Made by a program: the position numbers and the translations under genes. A stretch of DNA of 64,000 bases from Amoebidium appalachense. Its lineage: Eukaryota; Protista; Ichthyosporea. Where the stretch lies: positions 3,609,617-3,673,616 of the forward strand of contig CAVNZM010000012.1 of assembly GCA_963693365.1 (NCBI GenBank), in the 5' to 3' direction. The notes below the pieces were generated by a model, which saw nothing but the letters and a program-made list of their open reading frames with translations, was not told the origin of the DNA and did not search any database. Below are positions 5,573 through 51,677 of the stretch, piece after piece. Position 1 is the first letter of the stretch. Every line of letters starts with the position of its first letter.

Positions 5573-5578
5573 GGTTGA

Positions 5579-11138: not shown

Positions 11139-11207
<69 letters not shown>

Positions 11208-13298: not shown

Positions 13299-14710
13299 TG
13301 GAAGGAGGGAAGAACAAAAGAAAAAAAAAAAAGGGGGGGGGGGGGGGGGTTGGGTTTGAATGCGTCAAAAAGTACGAAGTACACAAGAACAAACGGATAA
13401 CACGATGCAGAATACAAGCCATACATAAAGAGTATGCATAATAAGCAGAGCCCATCCTCAGGGGGGGCCCACGTCATCCACAGTACCCGAGTTTCGACCT
13501 ATTCACCTCGTTAACGAAGCCCAATTCAGATACTGTTTCACTTGAACATGGGTAGGTCACCCGTCTTGATCAGAGACGAGCAGGGTTGCTTATGCAGGCA
13601 AGGGCAGTGGGAAAGGCCGGGGGTTAAAGTTGCAGCAGTAAGCAGAAGCAAGAAAAATATAGATAGGAACTCAGGAGACGGGGCTTCTAGGAAGCTCCCC
13701 CGTCGCTACCTAAGTCGATACTTCCCTGGCGAACATACTACACCAGCTGAAAAGAATTAAGTCCCAAAGGCCGCAGAATTCGCAATCAGAGGGGAAAATA
13801 TGAGATTTGACCCGGATGGTTTTGAGGATACTAACCATAACCGCCAGGAGGCATAGGGACCTGGCCCATTAGTGGGACAGCAGGCCTAGCCATGGCCGGG
13901 TTGATGGGGGGGATGACGGTCATAGGCTGCAGCATGGGGGGCATGCCTCCCATGTAACCTCCACGCCCAGTCATGCCCGGTGGGCCACGGGGCATCATGC
14001 CCATCTGAAGTGAATTCCTGTGGTTGGAGGGAACACGGTGGGGTTGGGTTGGGGGGGGGGGGGGGGGGGGGGGGGAGGAAGGGGAGGGTGAGAGAGAGAG
14101 GGAGGGAGGGAGGAGCGAGAGAGGGAGGGGGAGGGAGGGGGAGGGAGAAAGAAAGACTGAGGGAGGGAGGGAGGGAGCAAGTGTGAGAGAAAATGGAGGG
14201 AGAAGGGGGCGGGAGTGGGTAAGTTAGATGTGGTAGACGGAGCTCGGCATGTACAATACTGAATCAGACAACGAAGAACACGAAGAACACCGAGGTACAC
14301 AAGAATACGTATAAGTTTGTGCACAAGGAGGGTGGGGGTGGGGAGAACAGCTAAGAGGAAAAGCAAAAACGTCTTGATGAATAATAGGACTCGAGCGACG
14401 AGGTCTTTCGCGCCCCCCCTCCCCCCCCCCCCCCCCCCCCTCCCCCGCGCAAACTGCAACCTTTCCTTCCCTCAATCCACGTCCATTTTTCCTTCCTTCA
14501 AGCTTTGCCCATTCCTCTCCATAGTGGCCCTCTTTCCCCAACCCCTCTTAGTCTCCCACCTCTCCATTATTCTGGTGTTTCACTCATGAAAGGAAAGAGG
14601 GGGAGGGGGGGGGGGGGGGGGGGGGGGAGGGAGTTAGAATGTGTCGGAGAGACTAAATTCACAGTCATGACAGAGGATGGGGTGGGTTGGGGTGGATGTG
14701 GGGCGGAGGT

Positions 14711-17453: not shown

Positions 17454-17675
17454 GGGGATCTAAACCTCGTCGTCTGCTGGGCGGCTGATCTCATAGAGGG
17501 CACAGCACATGTTGAAGGCTGCATGGCGCTTGCCTACAAATAGAAAGTCCGTGCCCCGCTTGTTGCGCTAAGTAACGTATGTGTCAGAAAGGCATGTGTG
17601 TACGTGTACGTGCACATACACACACACACACACACGCACACACACACGCACACGGTCCGACACCTACGCTCACAT

Positions 17676-17710
<35 letters not shown>

Positions 17711-18063
17711 AAGAGAGACAAGGCCGGCACCAGACGCTTGCCATCCCCCCCCCCTCCCCTTCCGGAGCATGGCACCCAACACACCCACTCCTCATCCCCT
17801 GCAGTCTCTCCTACCCTTGATGCACGGCCAACGAGAAAAGAACATTCCCAAACTATTACTTTCAGCATGAAAAATATCTGCCTTGTCGGGTCAACCTAAT
17901 GCCCCTATAGACAGTATGACAATCTTTATCTTGATTGCCCGAGCGCAATTGTGTGAGTGAATTCTAGGGCAAACGAGTGCATTTGTGTGTGCTTGTGTGT
18001 TTGTGTGTATCTGTATCTCTATCTCTATCGTTCTCTTCTCCCCCCCCCCCCCCCCCCCCACAA

Positions 18064-18156
<93 letters not shown>

Positions 18157-18597
18157 AAACGAGCACATTTGTGTGTGCATCTCTATCTCCCCCCCCTCCC
18201 CCCTCCAACCCCCTACCCCCCCCCCCCCACCCCCACACCCCCAACCCCATTCCACCATCTTTGCGTGTGTACGTGTTTAGAACTCAGGACAGAGAAGGGG
18301 CCTACCTCTCTTTGAATCTCAGTCAGCTGGTCAGCCACTGTCTCGATTGCCTTAAATAGGCGCTCCTCGTCCATAAAAGGCAACAGCGCCACACCTGTAA
18401 GCCACCAACATCAGTGCCCGGCCGATAACAGGCATACAGTCATAATGAAAGATCCTATGTGTTCCCGTAAACCTCCGTCCCTGCCCTCCCCCCTTCCCCC
18501 CCCCCCGTCAAAAGAAAGAAAAGAAAGAAAAAGGAGGAGGCCAAGGGGAAAAGGGTGGGCAGGTGGGAACAAAAATGGATACACCAGAGTATGCAAA

Positions 18598-18677
<80 letters not shown>

Positions 18678-19534
18678 CTCCTTCTGCGCCTGTTCATGTG
18701 CATGAGTGGACACATGTGTGTCTGTCCGTGTTTGTGTGTGTGTGTGTGTCTCAGTGTTTGTTCTTGTAAGGTTGTGAAAGTGTTTTCACGTACCCATCCA
18801 AGCGAAGGGTTTGCCGTTGAGGTCGATCTTAAAGTCTGTCGGGTACATGTCCAGAATGGGTGACTTTGGGTCATACATCAACTTGCTCCATGCAGGGGGT
18901 AGGAAACGCTTGCCACTGGACGCTGTAGGGGGAATGGAGGGGGTAATAAGGGGTGAGAAGAGGTAAAAGAAGGGGGTAGGTGGGGGTAAGAAGGGGTAGT
19001 GGGGGTAAGAAGGGGTAGTGGGGGTAAGAAGGGGTAGTGGGGGTAAGAACGGGTAGTGGGGGTCAGAAGGGGTAGGTGGGGGTAAGAAGTGGGTAAGAAG
19101 GGGTGACAGAGGGGATGTAGAGGGGGTAAGAGGGGGTAAGAAGGGGTAGGTGGGGGCAAGATGAGGTAGGTGGGAGAAGGGGGGAAAAAAGGGTGATGAA
19201 GGAGGGGAGGGGAAGGGGGGGGAGGGGGGGGGGGGGGGGGGGGGTAAGAAGGTGTGATAAGAAGGGGTGGTAAGTGGGTGAGGAAGGGGTGATAGAGCAG
19301 GTAAAAAGGCGTCATAGAGCGGGAAAAAAAGCGTGATAAAAGGCGATCGAAGGGGGTGTTAAGGGGGGTACGAGGGGTAAGAAGGGGTGACTTGGTTATG
19401 GCGCAGACCGGTCGTGGTTGTGTTTGTGCTTGTGTTTATGTTTGTGTACGTGTGTGTGTGTGTGCTTCAGAGAGTGCGAGTCTGCTTGTGTGTGCATGTG
19501 TGTGTTTGAGTGTTTTTGTAGGTGTGATTCTGCT

Positions 19535-19570
<36 letters not shown>

Positions 19571-19581
19571 TGTACGTGTGA

Positions 19582-19666
<85 letters not shown>

Positions 19667-20376
19667 TGTGTGTGTGTGTGGTTCTGCTTGTATGTGTGTG
19701 TGTCTGTATGTACGTGTAGGGATGTGTGTGTGTGTGTCTTCGTGTGTGGATGTTCGTGTGCGCTTGTGCGCGCTTGCCTGCCCATGTTTGTGTGTGTGCA
19801 CGCATGTGTGTGTGCATGTGTGTGGCTTTGTGTCCGGTTCGCATGCATCACATCACACACCTGGCAAGACACCCATCAGCTGCTCCAACGGGTTGAATGC
19901 AGTCGTGCCCTGCTCGAAATTCACCTGCCACACATTCACGTCAGAACACATCCAAAAAAAGAAAGGAAAGAAAGAAAGAAAGAAAGAAAAAGAAACGAAA
20001 CCAAGTGGGCCGCTACAGTATGTCAAACTATCATCTTTGTAGCGTGTGTCCTCTGTAGGTCCTGACACAAATTTTAGAACTCAGAATAGCCGGTGTCATA
20101 TAGCAAAACAACAGTGCATGCTACCTCTCCAATTTGGTAGTTTGACGGAGCGGCTCTGTCCATCCTGGTTGATTCATTGAATCATGTATACGTGTACATC
20201 ATACTGAAAATACGGAATGTAGTCAGATGCATCAATAAGCTCATCCACATAGATAACTTCCAAGTCTGATTAAACTGGGTAAGTGGTGGGGAAAAAGACC
20301 GTAAAACTTCTACATAAACATTCACGCCATAACAACTTATCACACCAACCCCGGAGTCATACTAAGACTAGCTGAC

Positions 20377-20437
<61 letters not shown>

Positions 20438-21098
20438 CCCTCCCCCCTTCCCCTCCCCCACCACTACCACCACCAGACCCACACCCACACCCACACAGCC
20501 ACACAACGACAAGCACCACCACCACCACCACCACCACCACAAGCAGTCTTACGTAATACAACCCCACTGTATCCTACATACCATGTCACCCGCTCTCCAC
20601 ACAGGAACAATCTGGATTGAAAACAAATGAGTGACGGGGAGGAGAACAAGAGAGGGGGGGGGGGGGGGGGGGGGAGGGGGGGGGGGGGGGGGGACATTAC
20701 CGTTTCAGGGACTTCGCACTCAGCAATGTCCGAGGCAAAGGGGGAGTAGTGGTAGGGGTAGTACCACTTCCACGAGGCACAGCCCTGAACACACAGAGGG
20801 GAGTAAGTGGCTGATAGGCTGGTTGCATGTATGTGTACGGAGCATGGCACTATGTGTGTTACCCCCCCCCCCCCCCCCCCAAACACACACACACACACAC
20901 ACACACACGGCCACATCCACTACCCCCGACCCTAACCCCCCCCCCCCATCCTCATCCCCATCTACCCAACTCCTCAACCCCCCCCCCCCCCCCCCCCAAC
21001 ACACACACACACCCCACCCCATCCAATCCCCACCTACCCACACCCCCAAACTCCCCCCCATGCACCCACCCATGCACACAACCCCCCCCCCCCCTTCC

Positions 21099-21134
<36 letters not shown>

Positions 21135-21346
21135 AAGGAAAACACACACACACATACACACACACACACACACACACAGCCACGCACCTGGTAGTAGTAT
21201 GCCAGCACCCAGCACAATCCCTCCATGTACGACCTTACGACCTGTGTCCTGAACTCCATGTCCGTGACCTTCACCCCGAACTTGCTCTCGTAGTAGCGTG
21301 CCTTCCACCCATCCTCCCACAGTCTCACCTCGTCCGGTATCTCCGG

Positions 21347-21400
<54 letters not shown>

Positions 21401-21775
21401 GTGAGCACACGTTTTGCCTTCCATGTGTATATTGCAAAGAAAACACCGACTGAAAGCCGAATTCATCTCATGGAAACTTGTTAACGTGTCACAGTTATAT
21501 TTGCTGTTAGTATAACTGGCGCACGGTGGAGAGGCATCAATGAGAGGGGAAAAGAGCGTGGTCGAAGAAAAGGTCGTGGCTGGCAGCTTGCACGTATGCA
21601 TGGCTAACCAATCCCTTCTTTAACCCCCTCCCCATCCGCCTCCCCCTCCCCCCGCACGCGCATCCACACACACACACACGTCCCCCCCCGTCCCCCCCCC
21701 CCCCCCCCCCCCCCCAACCACACACACACAACACACACACACATCGCACCCCTTCCCCACCGCTACACACACACA

Positions 21776-21812
<37 letters not shown>

Positions 21813-22261
21813 ACCCCCCCCACCCACCCACACACACACACACGACACACACACAACGCACACACACACCTCCTCATCATCCATCGGGCGCTTGACCGGA
21901 CCCTTTGCATCTCCCTCCTCCCCGTTCTCCATCTTCGTGTCTCCGTCCTTCCCCATGAGGCTTTTGCGCAACTCTGCTGCCGCCTTTCGGTTGGCCTCCT
22001 CCTGTTTCTCCTTTTGGAACTGTTCAAGCCGCTGCTTGAAAATTGCCTGCAAAAACAAAAGAAGGGGGGACGGGGGAAGAGGGGGGGAGGGGGGGATGGG
22101 AAGGAGAAGGAGGAAGGGTACGCGAGTATGAGCAAGATTGCCTGTGTGCGGTAGGTGCAAGAAACACTACCCTCCCCCCCCGCCGCTGCGCACACTGCCT
22201 TAGACACACAGGCACACACACACAGGGCCATGCATAAATGGCCATGCATATCTGCGTGAAG

Positions 22262-22292
<31 letters not shown>

Positions 22293-22348
22293 ACACACAC
22301 ACACACACAACTCCCTTCCCCCTTCCCCCCCCCTCCCCCCTTCCCCCC

Positions 22349-22382
<34 letters not shown>

Positions 22383-22500
22383 GCACACACACACGTACAC
22401 ACCTGTGCCACGCCCTTGTTTGACTCCCCCTCCTGGCCCAGGGCTATGGGCTGATACTGCTTGATGTCCACCCACTTGGCCTGCGCCTCCTTGCGCGCCT

Positions 22501-22540
<40 letters not shown>

Positions 22541-22901
22541 ACGGTCGGCATGAGATTATGTTTTCTTACTAGGAAAAATAATAAGGAATATACACATCCA
22601 GGGAAATACTATAGAATCTAAAACGTGGTATGTGTAAGAAAAAAAGAAGAAGAAGAAGTAGAGAAGAAAAGGAGAGAAAGAATGGGTGTGTGTGTGGGGG
22701 GGGGGGGGGGGGGGGGGAGGGGGGGAGGGCAGTGTTCTAGAGGCACAACAAGAGAGAGAGAGAGTAGTGTGTGAGAGCCAGAGGGAGAAAGCTGAGGGAG
22801 AATGGAAAAGAGCTTTAGGGGAACGAGAAAAAGGGAGGGAGAGAGAGCAAGAACAAGAGGCAGATGGTCTCCCCTGCAAGGGGGGTGCGGGGAGAGATAG
22901 A

Positions 22902-22943
<42 letters not shown>

Positions 22944-23095
22944 GAGAGAGAGCAAGTGCACCTTCTCGTCGAGTTTTCTCCTCTTGCGTCTCTCCTTCAT
23001 CCTGTCGTCTTCGGTCTTGCGCTCTCTGAAGATCTCATCCTCCCTCTCCCCTAGCTCCTTAAAGATCACCTGCACACGCTTGCAGTTCACAGACC

Positions 23096-23127
<32 letters not shown>

Positions 23128-23191
23128 TCTTAGTATACCCTCCCCCCCCCCCCCCCAAAAAAAAAAAAAAAAAAAAAAAGCCACCCAAAAG

Positions 23192-23229
<38 letters not shown>

Positions 23230-24952
23230 GGGAGGGAAAAAAAAAAAAGAAAAACAAACCCCCAAACCCTCCCTTCCCCCAGTTCCCTTTGCGGCCATCT
23301 TTGTTCACCCACCCACCCACCCACCCCCTCCGTTATGCGCATACCATCGTGAATCAGCTACCCGTACAACTTGGACAATGAATTCTTTCAAATGGTCCCC
23401 CTCCACCCCCCCCCCCCCCCCCCCCCCCCCCCATCTCCCCGCCACACACACACACCGAAAATGCCCAAAAAACCCCCGGATTCCCCCTTCCCCCCTTCCC
23501 AACCATCTTTATTCACTCACCCACCCACCCACCCACCCACCGACCCCTTCATGCGCATACCATCGTGAGTCAGGTATCCGCCCAACTTGAGCAATGACTT
23601 TTTCCAAAAGGGTCCCCCCCCCCCCACCCCCACCCCCACCACCACCACCAAAAAAATGCCCCCTCTCCATCCCCTTTCCAATCATCTTCATTCACCCACA
23701 CCCACCCACGCCATTATGCACATACCATCATGAGTCAAGTATCCTCCCAACTTGGGCAGCGACTTCTTCCAAATGGTCACCAGGCGATCAATAGCGCCCT
23801 CCCTAATCTCCAGTGAGGGCATGTGGGGCAAAAAGTCGTTGCCCACAAAGAAGCAAAGGAACACCCAGTCGTCGATGGCTCTTTCGAGCTCAAAAGGGAA
23901 CGGGAGCGCTTCCTGTGGCGGATTGGAAATGAAGAGGAGGTGAGCAGGTGCTATTGCTTGTTGTTTCACCTTCCGATGATGTTTTTTCTTTGTTTTTCTT
24001 GCAGTAATCTCGGTACCAAAATGCCTAGGAAATCCATCCCTCTCCCCCCCTCCCCTCCCCTCCCCCCGCCGCCGCCCCTCCCTCCCTCTACTAAACACAC
24101 TCCCGTTGCAGAGTGGCAAGCGCGTACACCGATGTCAGCAGATCAAAGCACATCACCCATATCCACACCCACCGAAACACACGTGGACACTTTGCACACA
24201 TGTGCCAACGAGTAACCGCATTGCACGAGCACAAGAAAGGAGGGAGGGGAAGGGGGGGCGTGGGGGGGGGGGGGGGGGGGGGGGGGGGGAGGGAGGGGGA
24301 GGGGGACGAGCACATGAAAGTAGGGAGGGGAAGGGGCGGGTGGGCAGGGGGGTTTTGAATGCGTCAAAAAGTACGAAGTACACAAGAACAAACGGATAAC
24401 ACGATGCAGAATGCAAGCCATACATAAAGAGTATGCATAATAAGCAGAGCCCATCCTCAGGGGGGGGGCACGTCATCCACAGTACCCGAGTTTCGACCTA
24501 TTCACCTCGTTAACGAAACCCAACTCAGATACTGTTTCACTTGAACATGAGTAGGTCACCCGTCTTGATCAGAGACGAACAGGGTTGCTTATGCAGGCAA
24601 GGGCAGTGGGAAAGGCCGGGGGTTAAAGTTGCAGCAGTAAGCAGAAGCAAGAAAAATATAGATAGGAACTCAGGAGACGGGGCTTCTAGGAGAGGGGGGG
24701 GTAGAATGTAAGGGAAAGAGTGTGTATGAGCATATGTACATTTGTGTGGATACACGAACGTGAGTTGTTGTTGTGGTGGAGAGTTTCCTCCCAATTCTTT
24801 TCTCTTCTCCTTTTTCTATCTCTTTCGTTATTTGTTTGCTTCTTCTTATTCTTTTCTTTCCTTTTCCTTCTGGTTCTCCTTCATTTATATCACTATTCTT
24901 CTCTCTCTCTCTCATTCTCACTCTCTCCCCCCTGTCCCTCTCCTTCCCTCCC

Positions 24953-24991
<39 letters not shown>

Positions 24992-25448
24992 ACCACCACC
25001 ACCACCCCCCAACCCCCTTTTCCCAACCCCGTCTCCCTCTAGCCAGCTCTCTTTTTCCCTTTCACCCTTTCCCGTGTTTTTGCTTTGGGGGTACACTTAC
25101 GACATATAGCTCAGCCTCCAGATATTCTCTCAGCACGTTGATCTTGATCATCACAAACTCCTTGTCCATGTGGATAGGCCCCTTGGGCTCAGTCGCCTCC
25201 TTGGGCTTGCCCGTGCAGAACTCTTTCTGTGAATCCCAGGGCGCACAAATGTGAGTGTGTGTGTGCGCACGTGTATGTGTGTGAGTGTGAGAGTGTGAGA
25301 GTGTGTGAGTGTGTGTGCGAGTGTGAGAATGAGCAAGTGTGGGTGTGGGTGTTGTTGTGGGGGTGAGTGTGAGTGCGAGGCTGTGAGCGTGTGGAGTGTG
25401 TGAATGTGTGACTGGGTGTGTGTGTGTGTGTATAGGTGTGTGTGTGTG

Positions 25449-25495
<47 letters not shown>

Positions 25496-25627
25496 CGGTC
25501 TGTTGGTGTGCGGGTGTGCATGTAGGTGTTGGGTGCAAATGTGAGTGATTGTGAACGAATGTGAGTGTCGAACGCGAGCGTATGTACGTGGAAAGAATGT
25601 GCGTGTCCGTGCATTTGAGGCTCCGAT

Positions 25628-25658
<31 letters not shown>

Positions 25659-25715
25659 TATAAGAGAGAGTGTGCAAAGTGTGTGCAGGGCATGTGTATG
25701 TGTGTATTATTGTTA

Positions 25716-25780
<65 letters not shown>

Positions 25781-25884
25781 TGTATGTGTGTGTGTATGTG
25801 TGTGTGTGTGTGTGGTGTGTGTGTGTGTCTTCGTGTGTGTGTGTGTGTGTGTGTGTGCGTGTGTGTGCGTGTGTGTTACATGTG

Positions 25885-25935
<51 letters not shown>

Positions 25936-26526
25936 GTTTACGTGTGTGCGCGCTCGTCTGTGTGCGTAAGCGTGAGCGTGTCCACGTGCACGTGCGTGTG
26001 CTTCATGTGTGTGCATCAGGGTGGGTGCATGTGAGTGTTGGAGTGTGTGGTGTTGTGTGAATGTGTCTCGGTGCAAGATGCACACACATGCCTGTGTACT
26101 GGCATACTAGGAGGTGGGTGCTATGTGCATGCCGGCACGCACACGTGAAGTTGGGGAGGGGGGGGGAGGGGGAGGGGGGGGGGGGGGGGGGGGGGGGACC
26201 GTGCGGGTGTATGCTTTTGCAGCAAACTAACACGCACACAGATCTGTCTCTGCAGTGCAGGCAGGATGGGGGAAATCTGCCTGCGTGGGTGAGCCTATGT
26301 GCATGGGCTGGTGGGATACAAGCAATCAAACGACAGAGAGACAGGGTGATGGGTGGTGCGGGGTGAGCAGTGAGGAAGGTAACGTGTCTGCGTGAACGGG
26401 CGTGTTTGTGTGTGTGTTTGTTGTGGGAGGGGGGGGGGGGGGGGGGGGGGGGGCAAGTGTCTGTGTTCGCATGTGTGCGTGTGTGTGTGTGCGTGCGTGC
26501 GTGTGTGTGTTTGTGTGTGTGTGCGT

Positions 26527-26569
<43 letters not shown>

Positions 26570-26827
26570 CGTGCGTGCATGCATGAAGATAGGTGAGTGA
26601 GTGTGTGTGTGTGTGCTAATGTAGGCTCGAGTTTCTTACTGTTGTTTGGGGGTATGTGCCTTTGTCTGCGGCTGTGTGTGTGGTGGTGGTGGCCACGGTG
26701 GTGCTTAGCATATGTGCATGTATGCGTCACGGGGGGGGGGGGGGGGGGGGGGGGGGTTTGAATGCGGAACACGGTACGAAGTACGCATACACGAAGGACA
26801 CATGCAAAGGCAAACATTCAAGTATGT

Positions 26828-26871
<44 letters not shown>

Positions 26872-27323
26872 GTACGGTGTGGCCCATGTGACCGCACAGG
26901 TAGCACGGCTTGTCCCTAGCCGGCTTGACATCCTCACGAAGAACGTGGAAATGGGGCTCATGTGTGGCAAGCGCTGCACGCACACACACATAAACGATTA
27001 GAGCCCATGTTGCTAGTGTTTGCTAATATATTGGTTGGATAGGGGTGGAGTACACACGATAAATGCCATCAATAACACCAAGCAAGATTGAGGTAGGCTT
27101 ACAACAGTTGGGATTATGGAAAGTTGTGTGCGTGTGTCTGGGTGTGTGTTTGGGGACGGGGGAGGGGGGAGGGGGGGGGGGGCTCATGAATATGTGCTCA
27201 ACAGTTGGGATTATGGAAAGTTGTGCGTGTGTGTCTGGGTGTGTGTTTGGGGACGGGGGAGGGCGGAGGGGGGGGGGGGGGCTCATGAATATATGCTCAT
27301 GTGTGCGTGAGCGCGTGTGCACA

Positions 27324-27407
<84 letters not shown>

Positions 27408-29155
27408 TGTGTGTGTTTGTGTGGTGTGGCAAGGAGTATGCAACATAAAGGGTGGGGAAAGGAGGGGGGTGGGGGGGGAGGGGGGAGAGAAGGGAGTACC
27501 ACACGGAGGAAAATGTGTGTGTGTGTGTGTGGCGGGGGGGGGGGGGGGGGGGGGGGGGAGAAACGCACAGAGGAAAATGAGATCAGCGTCTGCACCGTAG
27601 AAGCAGTGCATGGTGTTTGGGTTGTGGGCTGGGTCTGCACGCTGCTTGCGGATAAAATCGATCACCTTGTGCTCACCCTCACCAGGCACAGTGGCATCAG
27701 ACATGATCACCTGTAGAGTTTTACAAGTAAATTAGTAAAACATAGTATTATATTAGTGTGCCAAGTAAATCAGTAAAACATAGCAAATCAGATAGTCCAA
27801 TCACCGTAAATGTTTTAACAACTAATAGTATTTAGCACCAAGCAGATTCAATACTAATCAGACTTGGCACCAAGCAGATTTGCAAGAACATGTACCCGGC
27901 AGCCGGCGCCAAATAAAACAACATTGGCCCACCAACCAATCAATCCCCTTGATCCGGAAAGGTAGGAGATGGAAAGAGCAATAAGCAAAAACCGTGTCAC
28001 GGGGAGGAGAGGGGGAGAGAGGGGAGAGAGAGGCACCTGATGGGCAGAAAGGGTAGACAAATCTCAGAAATTAGCAAACGAGATGTAGGGGCGGGGTCGG
28101 CTAGGGAGGGAGAGCGGGGAGGGGGGAGGAGGAGGGGGGGGGGGGGGGGTGCAAACAAGGCAGCGACAAATGGGGGAATTATGGATTTGGCATATGGAAT
28201 CCACCCACACCAGAATCCTCAGAGGAGCTCAAATGCATCAAACAAGTACATCACGCCGAGAACCATTCCTACCCCCCCCCCCCCCCCCCCACCACCACCA
28301 CCACCACACACACACACACACACCTCCCACACGCACACACCTTCACCCGTCCCTCTCTTCCCCTCTCCCCCCCCCCTCCTTCCCGCCTCACCCCTCCCTC
28401 CAAACCCCCCTCACCCCCCCGCCCCCTGTCTCCCCCTCCTTGCAACCCCCACCTCCCCCCCCCCCCCCCCACACACACACACACACGCCTCCCCCTCCCT
28501 CCTTTCCCCGCCCCCCTTCTCCCCCCCCCCTCTCCCCTTCCCCTCCCGCCCCCTCCCTTTGCCCAAACAACCACATACCTTAACGTTCCTCCAACCAGGG
28601 TCGGTGTTCAACCTCTCATGCACGTAATAGCGCAGGCACTCAGTGAGGTGAGCCATGAACTCTGTTCCTGGGGTGATACAGTTGCTGTCAAAGTGCTCGT
28701 GCTCATCCTTGGGCGGCGGCTGCAGACCATCTCTGATCATCTGCGCCCGTAACTCTTCCTGGTCTTGTTCCTTGTCGGCAGCTTCTTTCGCTGCACGGAA
28801 ACGACGCGAGCGCTGCTGGTTCATCTGTTGATGCAAAAAAAAAAAAAAAAAAAAAAAAAAGGGTAGTCATTAGCGCGACGCAAGGTAAGAAGGTGGTGCA
28901 GGGGGGAAAGGGTGGGGTAAGTATGTGGTTTACGCGAAGGGAGAATAACAAGGGCTAGGTGGAAGGGGTTAGGTGGGTGTGTGGGTGTGGGTGTGGGGGG
29001 GAGGGGGTATAATGAGTCATAGAGCACGACGTACACAAGGCAGACAACACAAGGCAGATGACAAACCACATAAAGAGCATGCATTAAGGCAGAGCACACC
29101 CTCGGGGGGGAACGGGAGGGGGGGGGGGGGAGGGGGGGAAGGGAGGGATGGGGGA

Positions 29156-29193
<38 letters not shown>

Positions 29194-30305
29194 GAACAAA
29201 AGGTTTTGGAGGGTGGTGGAGAGTGAAAGTGAGTGGGAAGGGGGAACGGCAGGAGAGGACAGGAGCGAGGTGAAGGGGAGAGGCATGAAGCAGGAAACAG
29301 GAAGGAGAGGGGCAGGCTAATTAGGGGGGGGGGGGGGGAGGGGGGGTTTTGAATGCGGAACACAGTACGAAGTACGCATACACGATGAGAAGCATGGTGC
29401 AGGACACATGCAAAGGCAAACATTCAAGTATGCAGCATCAGCCATGCGCACAGTATGCGTCATAAGCAGAGCCCATCCTCAGGGAGGGCCCAAGTCATCA
29501 ATTGCGTCTGAGTTTCGACCCCTTAGCCCGCGTATATACGACGCTCCAATTCAGACAGCAGCATCAACTGAACTTGGGTGGGTCAACCCGTCTTGATCAA
29601 AGACGAGCAGGGTTGCTTATGCAAGCAAGGTGAGCAAAACGGTGAAGATGTATGTGCAAACTAATGCAGTGCAGCGACAAACGCGTATGTGCTTACAGAT
29701 GCACGACACAGAGCAACCATGCCCGGTTGCATGGAAGTAAAGATGTCTCCACACAGTGGTCTGTCCTGAAAGGGGGGAATCTGTCGCAGAATAGGTAGTA
29801 CACAATCACAACGGACATGAAAATGCAAGATGGGGGGGGGGGGGGGGGGGAGGGGAAGAAGGGGGGGGGGGGGGGGGGAGGGAGGGAGGAAGGGCCGGGG
29901 AAGAGGTGTGAAGTGTGGAGGGATGGAGTGACGAGAAAGGGGGGGGGGGGGGGGGGGGGGGAGGGCTGGCAGAGAGCGGGGTGGGAGAGATGTGTGAGGG
30001 GGTTGGGAGATTGGCTGTTGGGGAGAGAGTGAGAGAATAAGAGGGGAGTGGGGGAGTTGGGTGGGGCGCAGGGGGAGGAGCGGGGGGTGGGATGTGGTGA
30101 AAGGGGGGGGGGGGGGGGGGGGGGGAGGAGTAAACGATGCAAAGGCAGTTGAGGCTGAACGTGCGCAGCTGTGCGGCCAGGAGTTGCTGCTAGGCAAGGG
30201 AACACGAACAATACGTGTCTTGCCAGGGAAGGACAAGAAAAGAAAAAAACAGGGGAGAGGCAGATGGAAGAAAGGGAAGAGAAAAGAAAAAAACGTGTGT
30301 GTGCA

Positions 30306-30338
<33 letters not shown>

Positions 30339-30408
30339 GCGCACGAGTGTGTGTGCACGTGTGTGTGTGTGTGTGTGTGTTCGGCCGGGGGGGTAGGGGA
30401 AGGGGGGA

Positions 30409-30441
<33 letters not shown>

Positions 30442-31249
30442 GGCAGATGGGTATCTTGCCTTGGCACGGGGAGCCACGCCGTCAACAGCCATATAAAGCA
30501 GTTGGCGAGGGCGCACAATGCTGAAAAATGCGATCAATGTACTGGAAAATGTGGACGATCATTTCATCCTCCGTAGCTGGGGCCGGGCTGCACGAAGACA
30601 GAGTGAGACTTACAAAGACATCCACTGTCACGTTCCTGGCAAAACCTACAACAAGCACTGCTGATAGATTTACAGGAAGCTGGAAAAGGAGGGTATATTA
30701 TAAGTACGTACCGGTCCTCTGGATGGCAGCAAGGATGGATGATGCCGTTCATATCCAGGTACAGATTATCGTACTCTATCCCATTGGGGTTCGGCTGGGA
30801 CGTATCCACAGGGACCATAACCCCATCCACTATGTTTAGTGGGTCCTGAAATGGCAAATTTTTGCGTTAGCAAAATACAGCTGTAAATGCCGAGAAGAGA
30901 CCATATTTAAGCAACGCGACGAACGACACCAGGAGGAGAGAAGCCTTGTGCTGTTTATTATGGACAAAAACAACTTGAGAACATTCTAAGCAACATGCAG
31001 TGCCTCATGGGCTTATCAAAGGGCTGAGGAGGCCTCATAGAAACTGCCCCACACGTCCTCACAGAACTTCCACACACGCATCTTTACTTGAAAAAGCCCC
31101 TTTATTATTACACTCTCTCGAGTCCTTGCAATCAAGAGTGTGCACAAACCAATATAAAAAAGAGGGAGAGGAGCACAAACCTCTGCGGCAGGAGAAACAA
31201 TTTTCTCGCACTTGTCGGAGAGCCAACGGTAGAACGCCGGAACCCCCAT
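12552..31249 (-). CDS. XRN2: 5'-3' exoribonuclease 2 (Rat1/Dhp1), ~22 exons
   Basis: Approximate exons: 31181-31249 [10 protein letters not shown]; 30712-30846 [13 protein letters not shown]; 30460-30587 [11 protein letters not shown]; 28580-28824 [17 protein letters not shown]; 27567-27710 PGEGEHK..DADLI; 26875-26974 with CYLCGHMGH knuckle; 25101-25227; 23725-23912 VGNDFLPH; 22962-23095; 22403-22499; 21870-22046; 21188-21346 WVLAYYYQ; 20700-20784 [11 protein letters not shown]; 19861-19923; 18794-18923; 18305-18394; 17465-17568; 16928-17014; 16254-16316; 15373-15488; 14854-14931; 13836-14004; 12552-12803 (G/Y/Q-rich tail; stop position uncertain). Confidence 0.96.
13355..13692 (-). mobile_element. 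Structured-RNA repeat, subfamily B, copy 1 (core 13441-13593)
   Basis: Near-identical to 24354-24691. The minus-strand 3' end CATTCAAA abuts a C-run. Confidence 0.85.
15484..15705. repeat. Degenerate ~45-bp tandem repeat bounded by a duplicated splice-acceptor segment
   Basis: AAAACGTAAGA..GGAACA.G..GCTC occurs four times, and AACGCTGCAATCAAAA occurs at both ends. Confidence 0.75.
18930..19320. repeat. G-rich ~18-bp minisatellite (GGGGTAAGAAGGGGTAGT)
   Basis: Seen directly, intronic. Confidence 0.8.
24354..24691 (-). mobile_element. Structured-RNA repeat, subfamily B, copy 2 (core 24440-24592)
   Basis: Homolog of 13355-13692, with G-runs on both flanks. Confidence 0.85.
26757..26826 (-). 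mobile_element. Structured-RNA repeat, subfamily A, 3'-end fragment
   Basis: Matches the terminal part of 29347-29759 with an internal deletion, and is embedded in poly-G. Confidence 0.8.
27103..27300. repeat. ~97-bp tandem duplication in an intron
   Basis: AACAGTTGGGATTATGGAAAGTTGTG...GCTCATGAATAT occurs twice. Confidence 0.8.
29347..29759 (-). mobile_element. Structured-RNA repeat, subfamily A (core 29461-29621)
   Basis: Highly similar to 49289-49683 and 50716-51127. Confidence 0.88.
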
Positions 31250-38473: not shown

Positions 38474-39592
38474 GGGGGGGGGGAGACCGTTGTTTTGCTT
38501 TACTTACCAAGAAGCTGTGACAGTTACGTCGTTTGGCATCCTGACCGGCGAATTGCAACCGGGTACAGAAACGACTCAACGGAGCGCTGCAACCTCAACG
38601 AGGCACAGATTTTGCATTAAAGTGAGCAAAAAAAAAGAGATGTTAAATATATATATCCTATTGCTATGGTAGTTTGCAAGGTTCAGAGTGAAAAAACTCA
38701 AGCTTGGTATGTATCTAAATGTATCTACAGATGTATGTGCATATGACGAACGAGCACGCGAAGGAAGATCCGATTTCAAAGCTACATAACGTGCGATGTG
38801 GACATTCCTGTCTGTGTGAAAAGGCTATTATTTGCCATTTCCTACGACCATTGTGTAAACGTTATCAGGTTTAGCGCTTACAACGGAGGCAGAGCGGCGG
38901 GGGAGGTGACCAAAATGGTTGCCGAACTAGCCGCCGTAGATCATCAACTTGAAGTTGAATGTGACTGGGAGCATGTGTGTGTCAACCTAGGCCGCAAATT
39001 ATATATGTTTTCGTACAGTTTGTGTGAACCTATTTGCCGGCTAGAACATGCAGCCAGCCGGGATATGAACAATATACAATATCCCTCCCATAAGACAAAA
39101 AACAAAAAAAAGTTTCTGGGCTGAAAATGTACTATGTACCTCCACATCCACATAGCAGTCAAGTCTACGGTAGGCTGACTGGAACGTGGCACTCGTGTCA
39201 ACATACGACTACCACCAGAGGTGGGCAAAAAGCATGAAGCCCCCACGCATACACTGGGGTTTTTATTGTGCACCTGACACGCTAATACTGGACCTGTGTG
39301 ATCAGCCCGCTGCCCGGGCCAGATGTCGATGGGCCCGGCGGCGCCTCCGCCCAGCCTGTCGGCAGGACAGATGCGTGAGCCACGGGCCGGTCAAGCTCGG
39401 CGACCCAGCCGGGCCTGTCACATTTTCGGGAACGTTTTTTCTATTTTCAGCTTTTCTTTTGTCTCAGTTTTTTCAGTTTTTTTCTCAGCATCTTTCGAAG
39501 TGGGCGAGAAATTAGTAGAAAATGTGGCCACCCTCAGAAGAAGAGCTTGTAAAGCTGTACAATCTGTTTATAACATCAGCTGCTCAATCATG

Positions 39593-42187
39593 ACCACTCT
39601 CCTATCCTTGACCACTCTCCTATCCTTTTCCTACCTAAGATCTCCCTTGATCTGCTCCCCCCTCCCCCTCCCACCTTTCGCCTCCGTCTATCCCAGCTTA
39701 AGTCACAGTGGGGTAGAGTTGATGTATGTGTATGCTATGCTACGAAACACCCTATATATATGCGCCTATTAGAATCTGCACAAGCCAGGCCAGATTCACA
39801 TCTCGTACTAGATACATGCACTAACTTTATTGTTGATGATTTGATAGATCTCGGTGATTATGCTGGCGGTGGTAGGAAGGAATACCCCGATGCTCTCTTG
39901 TTACCAAACACCACTCCCGCTAGACTAGGTGAACCCCTGTCTCAAAAGGAAAGCTTGCGCCGGCTTGCTAGTATGAATCGATTTGGCCCCCCTGCTCGTA
40001 TTATTGGTGATACCACTGGAGACCCCCTCATAGACTCTGATAAGTATTTCTCGGAACTGTTTAAAGATAGGACCCCCGCTCAGAAACCTATTGTGTGGCC
40101 TGTAGACCCATCTATCCCCATAGAATCGATCCTCCCCTTTTTCAGTCCCGATGCCATATGGTCTGTGATATCTAGTTATAGCTCTAGTAAGTCTTGTGGA
40201 CCTGATGGACTCCCTGCTGGGTTTCTTAAAATCCTTGTTCCCTCCTACCCACAAAAGGAAAGTGATCGTGCTATTAAACCTGATCTTACTATCATGTTAA
40301 GCTCTCTCTTTTCTTGGTGTGTTAAATGTGGACATGTCCCGTCATCTTGGTTAGATACCTTAGTGATCCCCATAGTTAAGAAGGACTCTGAGGGCCCCAT
40401 ATCATCCTTTCGCCCCATTACACTAACCCAGGTTGTTCGTAGATTCTTTGAAGCTTGCTTACTTAGGTTATTTGCACATCACCCTAGGTTTCAATCTATT
40501 CTTCACATACACCCATGCCAATCCGCTTTTCGTAAAAACAATTCATGTTATGTTCAAATAATGGCACTGCACGATTCTATGCAAGTTGGTGCACAATATG
40601 TTGGCTTTATTGATTGGAAAACTGCTTACGATTCTGTCTCCCCTGGTCTCCTATGGGAAAAGCTTGCTGCACGGGGTGTACCACACTGCATTGGTGTTCT
40701 GTTAGAAGCACTCTTGTCTCAAACCTATGGTAGAGCTGTGGTTAATGGGCATCTTTCATATGGTTTTGCTCGTACTAGAGGTCTCTTGCAGGGTTCATTG
40801 CTTAGCCCCTTTTTGTTTAACCTATTTATAGATGATTTGGCTGTCAAGATTTACGCCGAAAACGATGACCCTATTAATAACTTTCCGCCTGCACTTCTCT
40901 ATGCTGATGATCTGTCCCTCCTTGCCCGTACCCCTAGACGCCTGCAAAGATTGTTCGATGTAGTGTCAGAGTGGTGCAAGGCAAACCTTATGATCCTTAA
41001 CATAGACAAATGTGGTGTTCTTGTACCTGATATAGCTAACAATTTACACACATTTACATTATCATCTAAACCTGTACCTATAGTTCCAGAATACAAATAT
41101 CTTGGTGTTCCGGTTGATTCTGTTGGTGTTATGTTTCCCCATATGGTCGAAAAGAGGGTAGAGTTGGCTCGTAAGCGGTTAGCTTTCTTCTCGGCTAATA
41201 TTTTTAAAGACACACCCCTCCATCCTTCTATTAGACTTACATTTATTCGCACTTTTGTCTTCCCGGCATGTGAATATGGTTTACCCCTTCTCGCCGCTTG
41301 GATCAAGAAAGAGAGAACTAGAGCGCTTAAACCCCTGGCAAATTTCCTTGAAGCAGAAGTTGCCTCCTTTCTGTCTAACAACTGTTGTAAACCTGGGCCT
41401 GTAACGCTCTCGATATATGGTCTGGTCCCAATAGCTGCTAGAGTATCCTATCTCGCGCTGAAATTCAATAAGCACATAAGCCGCTTAAAGAAGTATTTGC
41501 CCTCCCACCCTCTCTTCTCTATCCGACCTGTCCCCTCCTCACCTCTCCCCTCTTTCCTCCCCTCTCTCTCCCCTTCTCCCCTGGGCACAAATACAAATAA
41601 ACCCCGCAATAGTGTGTGTGTGACTTTGGACTGCCACTTACTTATTAAACATGTACACAATCACAAGATAATCACGCAATATAACAAATGGAAAAAGATA
41701 CCACACGACACTAGACCCGATGAAAGCATACACCTTGAAAAACTAAGCCTTATGTCTCGTTTTATATATACTGACCGCCTCAACCATATTGCCAAATATG
41801 GCACTCGCAAGTGTATAACACCTAAATACATATTACCTTCCTGTAGAACTGGTCTTTCTCTAGCTGATGGTATTATTGATCAATTACCACGCTTTTACTG
41901 TACACGTGCTATACAGTGGAGATCTAATAAGTATAAGGTGGCATCATTTGCATGCCCAAACAACACACACACACACCAGTTTAACCGGTCATGTATCGCC
42001 AAATGTAGTTTGATAGACCACATAATACCGCAACACACACACGTCACATTCACAACAGACACCCAGAAAGATAGCCTACCTGTAAATTACAACATCCTTG
42101 ATTTTATACTAAACACGCGTAACTACGACCTGTTTATTAGATGTATTGATTGGCTTGAGAAACACATCACTACAAAATTATAGCGCA

Positions 42188-42256
<69 letters not shown>

Positions 42257-42288
42257 CCAGCTGATACCGAGTGTCCCGAGGGGAGCCC

Positions 42289-42345
<57 letters not shown>

Positions 42346-42540
42346 GGGGAACCCCAACTAATTGATTTCTCCTTGTAGTCTTTATGGTGTCTCGTAGAGA
42401 AAGTAAACCCTGATATATAGTCACCACCCGACATCTATGTACGTGATCATGATATACCGCTGAGGGGATATTCCGAGCAAACCCCCCCCCCCCATACCTG
42501 AGACTGGTTCTCTTTGCCTCGAGTAAACAGCGTAAACCCC
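39593..42540 (+). mobile_element. 5'-truncated LINE, copy 2, with 8-bp TSD CAATCATG
   Basis: TSD at 39585-39592 and 42541-42548. The open frame extends 5' of the ATG to LDHSPILF, which resembles the APE C-terminal SDH motif. Confidence 0.95.
39760..42183 (+). CDS. LINE ORF2: reverse transcriptase + Cys-rich C-terminus
   Basis: KSCGPDGL, FRPITL, QSAFRKNNS, DWKTAYDSV, QGSLLSP, YADD, YKYLGV. Confidence 0.95.
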   Translation: MRLLESAQARPDSHLVLDTCTNFIVDDLIDLGDYAGGGRKEYPDALLLPNTTPARLGEPLSQKESLRRLASMNRFGPPARIIGDTTGDPLIDSDKYFSELFKDRTPAQKPIVWPVDPSIPIESILPFFSPDAIWSVISSYSSSKSCGPDGLPAGFLKILVPSYPQKESDRAIKPDLTIMLSSLFSWCVKCGHVPSSWLDTLVIPIVKKDSEGPISSFRPITLTQVVRRFFEACLLRLFAHHPRFQSILHIHPCQSAFRKNNSCYVQIMALHDSMQVGAQYVGFIDWKTAYDSVSPGLLWEKLAARGVPHCIGVLLEALLSQTYGRAVVNGHLSYGFARTRGLLQGSLLSPFLFNLFIDDLAVKIYAENDDPINNFPPALLYADDLSLLARTPRRLQRLFDVVSEWCKANLMILNIDKCGVLVPDIANNLHTFTLSSKPVPIVPEYKYLGVPVDSVGVMFPHMVEKRVELARKRLAFFSANIFKDTPLHPSIRLTFIRTFVFPACEYGLPLLAAWIKKERTRALKPLANFLEAEVASFLSNNCCKPGPVTLSIYGLVPIAARVSYLALKFNKHISRLKKYLPSHPLFSIRPVPSSPLPSFLPSLSPSPLGTNTNKPRNSVCVTLDCHLLIKHVHNHKIITQYNKWKKIPHDTRPDESIHLEKLSLMSRFIYTDRLNHIAKYGTRKCITPKYILPSCRTGLSLADGIIDQLPRFYCTRAIQWRSNKYKVASFACPNNTHTHQFNRSCIAKCSLIDHIIPQHTHVTFTTDTQKDSLPVNYNILDFILNTRNYDLFIRCIDWLEKHITTKL

Positions 42541-46036: not shown

Positions 46037-47884
46037 TCTCTCTCTCTCTCTCCCCCCGTATCAACACAATACTCTTTTCTTTTCTTCCTTTCTTTTTCTT
46101 TTCTTTTCTTGCCTTTTTTTTCCCTATTTTTTGAATAAGGGGGGGGGGGGGGGGGGGGGGGGGGAGGACAAGCACTCACCGTGACAGACTCGCACAGGTT
46201 GCTCCAGAGGTCGAAGTTGGGGAAGGCATCTGGCCACGACTTTTTCAAAACAAAAAATCGGTATGCCGTGCCGCCAAACACATAGCCAACAATGCTTAGG
46301 AAGAGCCTGCAAGTGGTGGTGTTTTGTGTTAGGAAACTAACCAACAAAAATTTTGATACGGGGCCGCACAGGAATGGGAGAATGGCCGGGTTGGGAATGG
46401 AAGCTAAACAGTGATGTAATCCGGGAGGTGTGTGCTTGTGTGAGTGTGTGAGTGTGGCGTATGCGGGCACGCAGACATGAGTGGGACGAGAGAGGGGGGG
46501 AGGGGAGGGAGGGAGGGAGGGAGGGAGGGAGGGGGGGGAGAGAGAGAGAGAGGGGGGGGGGGGGGGGAGAGGGAAAGAGAGCGAGAGAGGGCGAGGAGGG
46601 GGGAGGGGGGGAGGGAGAGAGAGAGCGCGCGAGAGAGATGGAGGCTCACTCAAACGCCCCACAGCGTGGAACACCAATGCACACCAAATACTTACCCCAT
46701 CTTGTGTGGGTGGGATGATGGATGAGGGTGGAAATGGTTTTTCTTTCTTTCTTTCTTTCTTTTATTTATTTATTTATTTTCTTTTTTTTTTTTTTTGGGG
46801 GGGGGGGGGGGCAGAGGCTGTGGATGGATGTGCGTGGGGTGGTGAGACGTGGTGGTGTGTGTGTGGTTGGTGGCGGTGGTGGTGGTGGGGGGGGGGGGGG
46901 GGGGGGGGGGGGGTTGAATGCGGAACACAATACGAAGTACGCATACACGATGAGAAGCATGGTGCAGGACACATGCAAAGGCAAACATTCAAGTATGCAA
47001 CATCAGCCATGTGCACAGTATGCGTCATAAGCAGAGCCCATCCTCAGGGGGGGGGGGGGGGGGGGGGGGATTACAGCAAGAAAAAGGTGCCGAAAAAGCC
47101 CATGCCGCTGTTACTAGCCTCTGTTACAGGGCATGCATATGGTGTCAGCCACTCGAAGGAATACGTGCAGTTGTCCTCATTGATCAGCGACGGGGGGTTA
47201 TCCTGTGTGCACGAAAACGTGAGAACAATTATTTAGTGGTAGAGTATGTTGAGTTTTGGGCTTCCCACTCTGTTTGTATTTGTTCTTTCAGCATATTCAT
47301 CCGTACTTTGCATCCATATTCCCTCCCTCCCTCCCTCCCTCCCCCCGCCCCTCCCTCCCTCCCCCCCCAAAAAAGAAAGAAAGAAAAGGGTGGGAAGGGG
47401 GGGGGGGGGGGGGGGGGGGAGGGGGGGGGGGGGGGGGGGAAGGAAGGGAAAAAAAGAAAGAAAGAGGAAAAAAAACCCCCCCACTCCCACCTCCACCACA
47501 CATGCACGTAAAAACATACACACAGACACAGGCATGTACACACTCACCTCCCCCTCCCCCCTCCCCCTCCCCGAATATAGCCCCTGCCCCCATGCGCTCC
47601 AAACACCCACAAACATGCACATCCTCCGCTCCGGCTCCCCTGATCATTTGATGATAGGTGGTCGGTGAGTAATATGTGTCTGTGTTGAATGCATATACAT
47701 GGGAACTACTAAACGTGTGTATGCCGTAATCAATCCTGGTATTGATTATTAAAGTGGCTCTCTACATGTTAATGTACATTAAGGTTGACCGGAATCCAAA
47801 ACGAGCTCTATCATAGCCCGGCTGTTTTCCTAATCTCAAATCTATTCCCTTGCCCTAACAACCAGTGTGTATGTAGGTCGCAGG

Positions 47885-48907: not shown

Positions 48908-50017
48908 GGGGGGGGGGGGGGGGTTAGAGGAGGTGGGGAAGGGGTCGACATTGGTCAGGACAGGCAGGGGTCTGACATTACCATAAAAAGGAGCAACAGT
49001 ACCGTATAGACCGATTAGAATGGCAAAAATGCAAAACGAGGTGGAGGGTGCATACAGGAATCATTCACAGCCCCCCCCCCCCCCCCCCCGGGGGGGGGGG
49101 GGGGGGGGGTAGAGTAGCAGCATACAGTCAAAGCGGATATTGTCCAAAACAACGGTAATGTAATATTACCCAAAAAAAAAAAAAAGAGGAAAGAAAAAAA
49201 AACCCTTAGTGTGCAACATCAAGTGACGAACTTCTCGGGCGAGAGAAGGGGAAGGGGAGGGAGGGGGGGGTTGGGGCGGGGGGGGGGGTTTGAATGCGGA
49301 ACACAGTACGAAGTACGCATACACGATGAGAAGCATGGTGCAGGACACATGCAAAGGCAAACATTCAAGTATGCAACATCATCCATGCGCACAGTATGCG
49401 TCATAAGCAGAGCCCAATCCTCAGGGAGGGCCCAAGTCATCAATTGCGTCTGAGTTTCGACCCCTTAGCCCGCGTATATACGACTCTCCAACTCAGACAG
49501 CAGCATCAATTGAACTTGGGAGGGTCAACCCGTCTTGATCAAAGACGAGCAGGGTTGCTTATGCAAGCAAGGTGAGCAAAACGGTGAAGATGTGTGTGCA
49601 AACTAAAGCAGTGCAGCGAAAAATGCGTACGTGCTTACAGATGCACGACACAGAGCAACCATGCCCGGTTGCATGAAAGTAAAGGGGGGGGGGGGGGGGG
49701 GGGGGATGTTTACCTTCCACCAAAGTAATCTTTGCCGTAGTGGCATCTCCGCACTCAAACACCTGATTTTCCTGTCCGACTTTAACCTGCCACACAGCAG
49801 CATGCTGCATGCAAGGTTGAGTTCATATCAGAATACTACTTGATAACCCCCCCCCCCCCCCCCCCCCCTCCCCCCCCCCCCTCCCCCCCCCCCCCCCCCC
49901 CCCCCCAAACTCCCCACCATTCCCTTTCATCCCCTTCCTTTACCCTCCCCCTCCCCCCCCCCCATCCCTCCCCCTCCCCCTGCCCCTCCTTAAAACCGCC
50001 CCCGCCACTTCCGGCTG

Positions 50018-50117: not shown

Positions 50118-51677
50118 ACACACACACACAAACATCAACAGAATACTAAGCGCGCGCACCGATGTGTGTGTGCGGGGGGGGGGGGGGGGGGGAGAAGACA
50201 CTGTGAACATGAATGAAAAGGGCGCATGGAGTACTCTCTAACTCTCGCTCCCACTACAACCTTCCCGTCTCCCCTTCCTCTCCTCCCCCCCCCCCCCCCC
50301 CCCCCCCCTCTCTCTCCGTCCCTCGAACCACCCTCCAGACGCACCGACCCTCCTGCAAGAAATCTCGCCCACCCTTTCCTCCGTCTTCGATCTGCTTGGA
50401 TGATAATAGCTCATACACGATAATATACCAAACGATTATATATATATTATACGATAATAGATGATAACAATAGATGATGATAGATTCAGGGCCAGAACGA
50501 AGCATCAATGACGCCAGAAACAGAACACACAGAAATGGGTAACATCCACATTAGCTCTACAGCAACGCCATGAAATGTGCATGAGGAGGCGCACGTTTGT
50601 GTGTGTGTGTGTGTGTGTGTGCGTGCGCACCCGTATGTGTGCACCGCGTGCTGTGCTGGTGTTTGTAGCTGCACCCCTATCTAATAAAGGTAAAAGGAGG
50701 AGGAGGGGGGGGGGGTTTAAATGCAGAACACGGTACGAAGTACGCATACACGATGAGAAGCATGGTGCAGGACACATGCAAAGGCAAACATTCAAGTATG
50801 CAACATCAGCCATGCGCACAGTATGTGTCATAAGCAGAGCCCATCCTCAGGGAGGGCCCAAGTCATCAATTGCGTCTGAGTTTCGACCCCGTAGCCCGCG
50901 TATATACGACTCTTCAACTCAGACAGCAGCATCAACTGAACTTGGGAGGGTCAACCCGTCTTGATCAAAGACGAGCAGGGTTGCTTATGCAAGCAAGGTG
51001 AGCAAAACGGTGAAGATGTGTGTGCAAACTAAAGCAGTGCAGCGAAAAATGCGTATGCGCTTACAGATGCACGACACAGAGCAACCATGCCCGGTTGCAT
51101 GGAAATAAAGCGGTCTCCACACAGTGGGAGGGGGGGGGGGGGGGGGGGGGGGGGGCAAGGGGGGCCAAAGAAGAAAAGCCGGGTTAATAGGGCCGCAGCA
51201 AAAAAAAAAAGAAAAGGACGGCATGGAAAAATATTAGCATTGGTGTAAGCAGTGAGAAGTAGAAATGAAGGGGGCAGGGAGAAGATGAGGGGGGGAGGGG
51301 GGGGAGGGGTGGGTGGGTAGAACAGAGCCCATCCTCGGGGGGGGGGGGGGGGGGGGGGGGGGGGAGGGGGAGGCTACGTCATCCACAGTACCCAAGAGGG
51401 GATGGGGGGGGAGGGGAGAGAGGGGGGGGGGGGGTTGCCAAGTGTATAGGGAGGAACACATACCGTATTGCTGGCTTCGCTATTTGAGTATATGCGGTCA
51501 CACACGTTAATTGTATAGGTATATTCATTCTTCTCACTTATGTCTTTCGCCTTCCATTCTCTGTAGTGCAACAACCCCTGTCAGTTCGTGCTAGTCCCAT
51601 ATTCAGTCACGAGCCAGCCAGCCCCCCCCCCCCCCCCCCCCTCCCCCCGACATACACACACACACACACACACGCAT

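Follow-up and report, generated by a model that had tools for sequence, protein, structure and literature searches.

A candidate split-core hammerhead ribozyme on a short, likely non-autonomous Penelope-like repeat of Amoebidium appalachense

The window analyzed here, a 64,000-nt stretch of the Amoebidium appalachense genome (contig CAVNZM010000012.1), holds on its minus strand the host gene XRN2 together with copies of a short repeat that lacks an open reading frame and bears the core bases of the hammerhead ribozyme (Table 1). The focal copy lies in sense orientation inside the XRN2 intron between 30460 and 28827, the 24.5 kb copy and a fragment at 26.8 kb also lie in XRN2 introns in sense, and the 13.5 kb copy is probably in XRN2 too, beyond the mapped exons. 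All of the XRN2 copies and fragments are sense; the four copies or fragments at 46.9–51.4 kb are on the minus strand, like an exon-like stretch at 49790–49713, and the fragment at 60.8 kb is on the plus strand. Strand bias of the C-runs was considered as the cause of the sense orientation within XRN2 and discarded, the C-runs numbering 28 on the plus strand and 34 on the minus. One XRN2 exon is 59–66% identical to 11 animal-type matches and 62% to a plant match, those animals being 61–89% identical to one another; no close relative appeared in the protein search, and a PX-domain search returned nothing. Elsewhere in the window, Copia-like remains (integrase, Pol domains) occupy positions 1–5750, and two identical tRNA-like stretches (1450–1522 and 1820–1892) sit within a 222-bp direct repeat.

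Table 1. Coordinates of the host gene, the repeat copies and the elements of the focal motif within the window
Feature	Position	Strand	Basis
XRN2 host gene, mapped exons	17484..30851	-	Pfam XRN_N; tblastn exon map
Family 1 focal repeat copy between C-runs, almost a complete 453-nt monomer	29347..29773	-	self-BLAST, ends
Family 1 copy, every helix intact, one extra U after A9	49286..49684	-	
Family 1 copy, stem I A-C mismatch at 50914	50713..51127	-	
Family 2 copy, G-to-A at 16.2 (13525), 5' end approximate	13352..13730	-	
Family 2 copy in an XRN2 intron, with breaks in two P2 pairs (24467-24468)	24351..24691	-	
5'-truncated copy, begins at C-run just before CUGAnGA	46914..47053	-	
5'-truncated 3'-end fragment, XRN2 intron	26754..26826	-	
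Fixed 3' end, consisting of an A-run and a C7 run that belongs to the element and merges with the target C-run	29339..29350	-	ends
5' strand of the outer closing helix P0 (6-7 bp and a further 3 bp)	29610..29621	-	
P1 hairpin, 7 bp, loop with 6-nt palindrome	29587..29607	-	
Stem II 5' strand, displaced upstream of the core, G10.1 = 29584	29580..29584	-	
P2 5' strand, helix bridging stems I and II	29572..29578	-	
Block S: stem III strand, triplet (H17 = 29548), stem I strand; private G-to-A at 29550	29544..29557	-	
Linker with palindromic hairpin; family 2 palindrome unrelated	29522..29543	-	
Block G: stem II 3' strand, GAAA (G12 = 29516), stem III strand	29505..29521	-	
P2 3' strand, stem I strand, CUGAnGA (C3 = 29482, A9 = 29476)	29476..29495	-	
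One U, then P0 3' strands; also rival stem II strand	29461..29475	-	

An initial annotation of the window had placed five full copies of the motif on the minus strand, and all five were found there; from closing helix to closing helix they span 13593–13441, 24592–24440, 29620–29462, 49562–49403, and 50988–50830, giving a motif length of 153–160 nt. The copies at 29.5, 49.5, and 50.9 kb constitute family 1 (family A of that annotation); family 2 (its family B) comprises the 13.5 and 24.5 kb copies. The two families align only over the motif and the last ~34 bases, and identity between them is 94–97% in the outer scaffold, 71% in the inner part, and 57% in the 5' flank (shuffled mean 52%). Self-BLAST added partial copies at 26.8, 29.0, 46.9, 51.3, and 60.8 kb. 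The fragments at 29011–29110 and 60791–60848 belong to a third family with a different 3' flank, and similar flanks occur among the loose ends of the run contigs.

The core bases C3 U4 G5 A6 N7 G8 A9, G12 A13 A14 A15.1, U16.1, and H17 are kept in all five copies, H17 being U17 throughout, and the blocks run in the order cleavage site, GAAA, CUGAnGA, so that the earlier description of a hammerhead core in non-circular order applies to each copy. The novelty that had been attached to this order does not hold: NUH, GAAA, CUGAnGA is the published type SGC (Eckert 2023, PMC10085705), in which the core is treated as three blocks, S, G, and C, with six possible orders on the assumption that the blocks cannot be interrupted. 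By analogy with other hammerheads, cleavage would fall between 13523/13522, 24522/24521, 29548/29547, 49490/49489, and 50916/50915, the same positions as had been proposed before.

The helices proposed in the initial annotation all pair, with 97% of 208 cells paired compared to 27–49% in slid controls, and the compensatory changes it reported are present in 5 of 42 pairs, distributed over stems I, II, and III as well as the bridging helix. Because the two families represent few independent events, the covariation in the window is modest when taken alone. Stems I, II, and III adjoin the core and covary as in a hammerhead, stem I with only 3–4 bp, and the contact between stems I and II is supplied by P2, a helix of 7 bp with one pair changed on both sides. 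Private mismatches occur in the stems of three of the five copies. A structure descriptor built on this fold recovered four of the five, the 50.9 kb copy failing at stem I, and returned no further match in the window, none in 30 shuffled windows, and none in 175 fetched loci. Single-strand minimum-free-energy folds, a method blind to pseudoknots, recovered stem III and P2 in three of the five copies. As had been anticipated, standard models miss the motif: positions 29330–29780 gave no Rfam hammerhead match at E ≤ 10 and one chance match, and no hammerhead stood among the 150 of 170 whole-window matches listed, all of which except two tRNA hits scored below the gathering score. Neither the circular order CUGAnGA, GAAA, NUH nor the Rfam match of types I–III is thus found here.

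Where the 5' strand of stem II lies had been left as a question between a discontinuous stem and an alternative downstream pairing, and the comparison of the two favors the former. The upstream stem II pairs in 29 of 30 cells and has two of its six pairs changed on both sides, compared to 26 of 30 cells and no such pair for the downstream strand, three of whose pairs are G-U. Duplex energies range from −7.3 to −9.4 kcal/mol upstream and from −2.6 to −8.1 kcal/mol downstream, the upstream pairing being the better in all five copies and the margin narrowest in the 50.9 kb copy (−9.3 versus −8.1 kcal/mol). In run X4, both positions of pair 10.5-11.5 are variable, with matching depth (9427 at 24553 and 9411 at 24499, these being unphased per-site counts), and the loose-end consensus sequences of run X1, likewise unphased, carry the C-G form of this pair on both strands. 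By eye, the same pentamer as the upstream one stands immediately after CUGAnGA in 29 of the 55 viral loci, most of which are ordinary phage type II hammerheads. The published SGC-1 reads CUGAnGA, U, stem II strand, one base, and then the strand that pairs before stem I (PMC10085705), and the spacing of stem II strand, one base, and bridging strand in the window equals that of the SGC-1 oligonucleotides as compared by eye in the accessible part of that work.

These observations bear on a competing possibility, that the motif is an ordinary unsplit type SGC whose stem II is made with the strand that lies two bases after A9, leaving the upstream strand as a competing off-switch. The downstream pairing can indeed form, with 4 bp in family 2 and 6–7 bp in family 1, Eckert 2023 (PMC10085705) permits one or two extra bases after A9, and an off-switch would fit an element that needs at times to stay uncut. 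However, half of the downstream pairs are G-U and two are broken in family 2, the upstream strand follows every change, and the clear Naiad examples considered below, as judged by eye in the accessible consensus sequences, have no downstream option at all; we consider an unsplit SGC improbable. In the window, the hairpin P1 stands just before G10.1, and CUGAnGA is followed by a U and then by the 3' side of P0. Since the second half of block C thus lies upstream of block S, the motif corresponds to a circular permutation of SGC opened at A9/G10.1. We are fairly confident, from the pairing pattern, that the break in the core falls between A9 and G10.1 and that P0 and P1 close it, and for the discontinuity of stem II, which had been listed as a weak point, we found no earlier description.

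The individual copies are in uneven condition. Four of the five carry a helix-breaking change, which leaves the 49.5 kb copy as the single intact one. Damage in the focal copy consists of an AUU triplet that produces an A-C mismatch at 16.2/15.2. The triplet is AUU in two copies, as had been noted, and is private to them, the public runs carrying G: position 16.2 is G at all or nearly all of the depth in four runs, and the summed family 1 depth with A at 16.2 is 0 of 384,344 in run X1 and at most 66 of 247,157 in run X8. The two broken P2 pairs of the 24.5 kb copy similarly contradict 92–99% of the depth in run X4. The G-to-A change at 16.2 recurs, at 13525 in family 2 and at 29550 in family 1. 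Taken post hoc, this recurrence and the damage to four of the five copies may hint at selection against cleavage inside genes. Among family 1 sequences in four runs, no core position is listed as variant at 3%, and most flank positions are likewise unlisted; in run X4, C3 and U4 vary at 2.5–3.4%, with an adjoining 1-nt loss at 4.6% and a C-run next to the site.

The copies have the same 3' end, made up of an A-run and a C-run; their 5' ends are ragged, beginning at C-runs. The copies in the window are single, though run contigs show a tandem junction: in runs X14 and X8, two of four, position 29760 is followed by 31–32 other letters and then by 29339–29341, giving a head-to-tail monomer of 453 nt. 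A contig passes through the letters of the 3' end into the tandem linker with no difference, which places the C7 run within the monomer. Contigs on the element number 2615, 5881, and 8091 in three runs, contig depth not being equal to copy number. The 5' truncation, fixed 3' end, microsatellite (C)n targets, and head-to-tail copies are those of non-autonomous Naiad/Chlamys elements, the marks given for non-autonomous Chlamys being 5' truncation, tandem copies, and a preference for (C)n targets (Craig 2021, PMC8557442), and on this pattern the carrier is likely a non-autonomous Penelope-like element. No autonomous GIY-YIG/RT partner element was seen in the 64-kb window. The one reverse transcriptase reading frame scanned had a generic RVT_1 match only, and its copies end in poly(A). 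Its element is present at 9447–11467 and 39574–42540 as 98% identical poly(A)-tailed copies, one of them with an 869-codon open frame.

None of the copies in the window starts at the predicted cut site, and all five full copies run through it, from which it follows that the template was uncut, rejoined, or circular; the uninterrupted copies would fit circles, but equally a ribozyme that rarely cuts. In a second alternative, the fold derives from a hammerhead but has lost the ability to cut, and the repeat retains it as a protein-binding or stabilizing element. The absence of any genomic copy beginning at the cut site, the presence of sense copies inside introns of an essential gene, and the short stem I would agree with such a fold. 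Against it, all of the catalytic bases are retained, together with a legal triplet, by both families and, in the accessible consensus sequences, by distant Naiads, the family 1 core shows the constancy described above (shared by most of its flanks), and the intronic copies are the damaged ones, so that we regard a fold that has ceased to cut as unlikely.

We return to a self-cleaving split hammerhead with a predicted four-way junction, borne on a short and likely non-autonomous Penelope-like repeat, which is probably the correct reading of these sequences, the 3–4 bp of stem I and the GUU triplet being counted against the predicted cleavage. Because the C11.1–G12 strand would stay continuous, stem II would stack on the A9-G12 pair and P0 would stack on P1, a proposal that draws on what is generally known of hammerhead structures and four-way junctions. 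Cleavage of tandem transcripts after GUU would release monomers with their ends still clamped by stems II, III, P2, and P0, and, with the ends held in the same fold, the monomers would be suited to ligation into circles. A reverse transcriptase of the Naiad/Chlamys type could then prime on a nicked G-run paired with the C7 run of the RNA, which is the likely priming site and lies ~200 nt 3' of the cut site, and would copy through the rejoined site and drop off at other C-runs.

The same helices might instead form between two molecules, with palindromic loops joining copies into a ribozyme active only as a dimer. Small Penelope-associated hammerheads are active as dimers, and the palindromes have some capacity for self-pairing, the duplex of the P1 loop being worth about −5 kcal/mol and that of the internal palindrome about −18 kcal/mol in both families; by eye, the P1 loop is also palindromic in three of the seven Naiad designs inspected in the accessible consensus sequences. 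However, one chain can form all of the helices, the remaining four Naiad designs have no clear loop palindrome, and cleavage of the published SGC ribozymes takes place during transcription, the accessible part of PMC10085705 making no mention of a dimer. An obligate dimer therefore appears doubtful, and we retain the single-chain split hammerhead.

Counterparts of the motif were sought in Penelope-like elements and in metagenomes. Craig 2021 (PMC8557442) described Naiad and most Chlamys elements as lacking a canonical hammerhead, recorded 10 with a "core" and 8 with a "half core," and suggested that these ribozymes may be dispensable or parasitic. By eye, the split order is present in at least 11 of the 54 Naiad consensus sequences in the accessible part of File S5 of that study, with unrelated stem sequences; these comprise Bfor, Amil, Aacu, Anas, Obim, Ovul, Esco (with a weak stem II), and four more, and amount to about eight independent designs, in two of which P0 follows A9 without a spare base. 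In the clear cases, the bases after CUGAnGA pair with P0 and not with the strand before GAAA. At least six other Naiads in the same file fit type CSG by eye, three of them being Nbra-1, -2, and -3, and at least two more combine the order S, G, C with an ill-defined stem II and a hairpin that precedes GAAA. As far as the accessible sequences go, the 3' regions of Chlamys-1 and Chlamys-2_cRei, which target (C)n in Chlamydomonas, showed no split motif by eye, and 8-mer searches for Chlamys returned none among the matches listed, line breaks hiding some motifs.

A metagenome scan with a strict pattern gave no matches, and a loose pattern gave at least 120 loci, these from 50 of 64 parts, none of which passed the split descriptor. 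The 55 loci of a viral scan were rejected as ordinary type II hammerheads or chance, again with none passing. At three loci in metagenome contigs (L072, L088, L097), ~60-nt tandem repeats carry hammerhead core motifs in most units and have the look of satellite-type hammerheads. In the viral scan, four type II hammerheads (L013, L019, L038, L039) share a single 100-kb contig, every one of them preceding a ribosome-binding site.

We lean, by a modest degree, toward the broader proposal that the motif represents a seventh natural hammerhead wiring: in Naiad-type Penelope-like elements, from ctenophores to molluscs, it would be the ribozyme at work, and in the species studied here it would have the same role in a (C)n-targeting retrozyme. 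A split block C would be a wiring outside the six-order scheme of Eckert 2023 (PMC10085705), and would place non-circular hammerheads in chromosomes at high copy. If the proposal is true, CSG, SGC, and split forms occur together in one transposon clade as an extant series of non-circular permutations, and selection would favor loss of cleavage in those copies that lie in sense within XRN2 introns. Should the split and CSG forms cleave, the Naiads would have kept and rewired their ribozyme, in place of the dispensable or parasitic role suggested in Craig 2021 (PMC8557442). Genome-wide ribozyme counts built on types I–III would miss a large class, and engineers would gain a natural entry point in the core for extra helices.

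Among known hammerheads, type SGC (HRIMA-1 and its variants) is similar to the window motif in its S, G, C order, the U after A9, the helix bridging stems I and II, and the two core pseudoknots. SGC has been shown to cleave and is known from metatranscriptomes only, and none of the non-circular hammerheads had been found in known genomes save for one doubtful case (Eckert 2023, PMC10085705). The window motif differs in that block C is split, with the stem II and bridging strands moved 5' and two helices added, rather than uninterrupted with the stem II strand 1–2 nt after CUGAnGA; in its length of 153–160 nt, SGC being at most 104 nt; and in being chromosomal, high-copy, and eukaryotic. The published SGC descriptor, as read by eye in the accessible part of the source, allows linkers of up to 8 and 15 nt and specifies N7 = U, whereas the window motif has about 22 nt between its stem I and stem II strands and N7 = G. 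Judged by its strand arrangement, the motif is outside types I–III and outside SGC as defined. The natural core variants of Perreault 2011 (PMC3088659) share with it a core that tolerates local insertions, but the insertions described in its accessible passages are of one or two bases, in contrast to the strand break and the two helices that stand between A9 and G10.1 here. Within the openly available literature on permuted, Naiad, or extra-helix hammerheads, we found no description of a split core; the accessible parts of PMC13725137 and PMC10162972 describe none, the former mentioning hammerhead variants with additional helices. The split between A9 and G10.1 is accordingly the part that we could not find described and take to be new, the S, G, C order being already known.

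With Naiad and Chlamys elements, as far as the accessible sources describe them, the window repeat shares 5' truncation, a fixed 3' end, and head-to-tail copies, with Chlamys also the (C)n targets, and with Naiad 3' regions, by eye, the same split hammerhead order, and it differs from both in having no open reading frame. The accessible part of the report on non-LTR retrozymes (bioRxiv 10.64898/2026.07.22.740005) describes elements whose monomers are short, non-coding, and equipped with a single hammerhead, which show tandem junctions, and whose origin is likely Penelope, and in all of these respects they are similar to the window repeat; those retrozymes bear type I hammerheads, occur in animals, and avoid introns, whereas the repeat described here carries a non-circular wiring and is present in single intronic copies.
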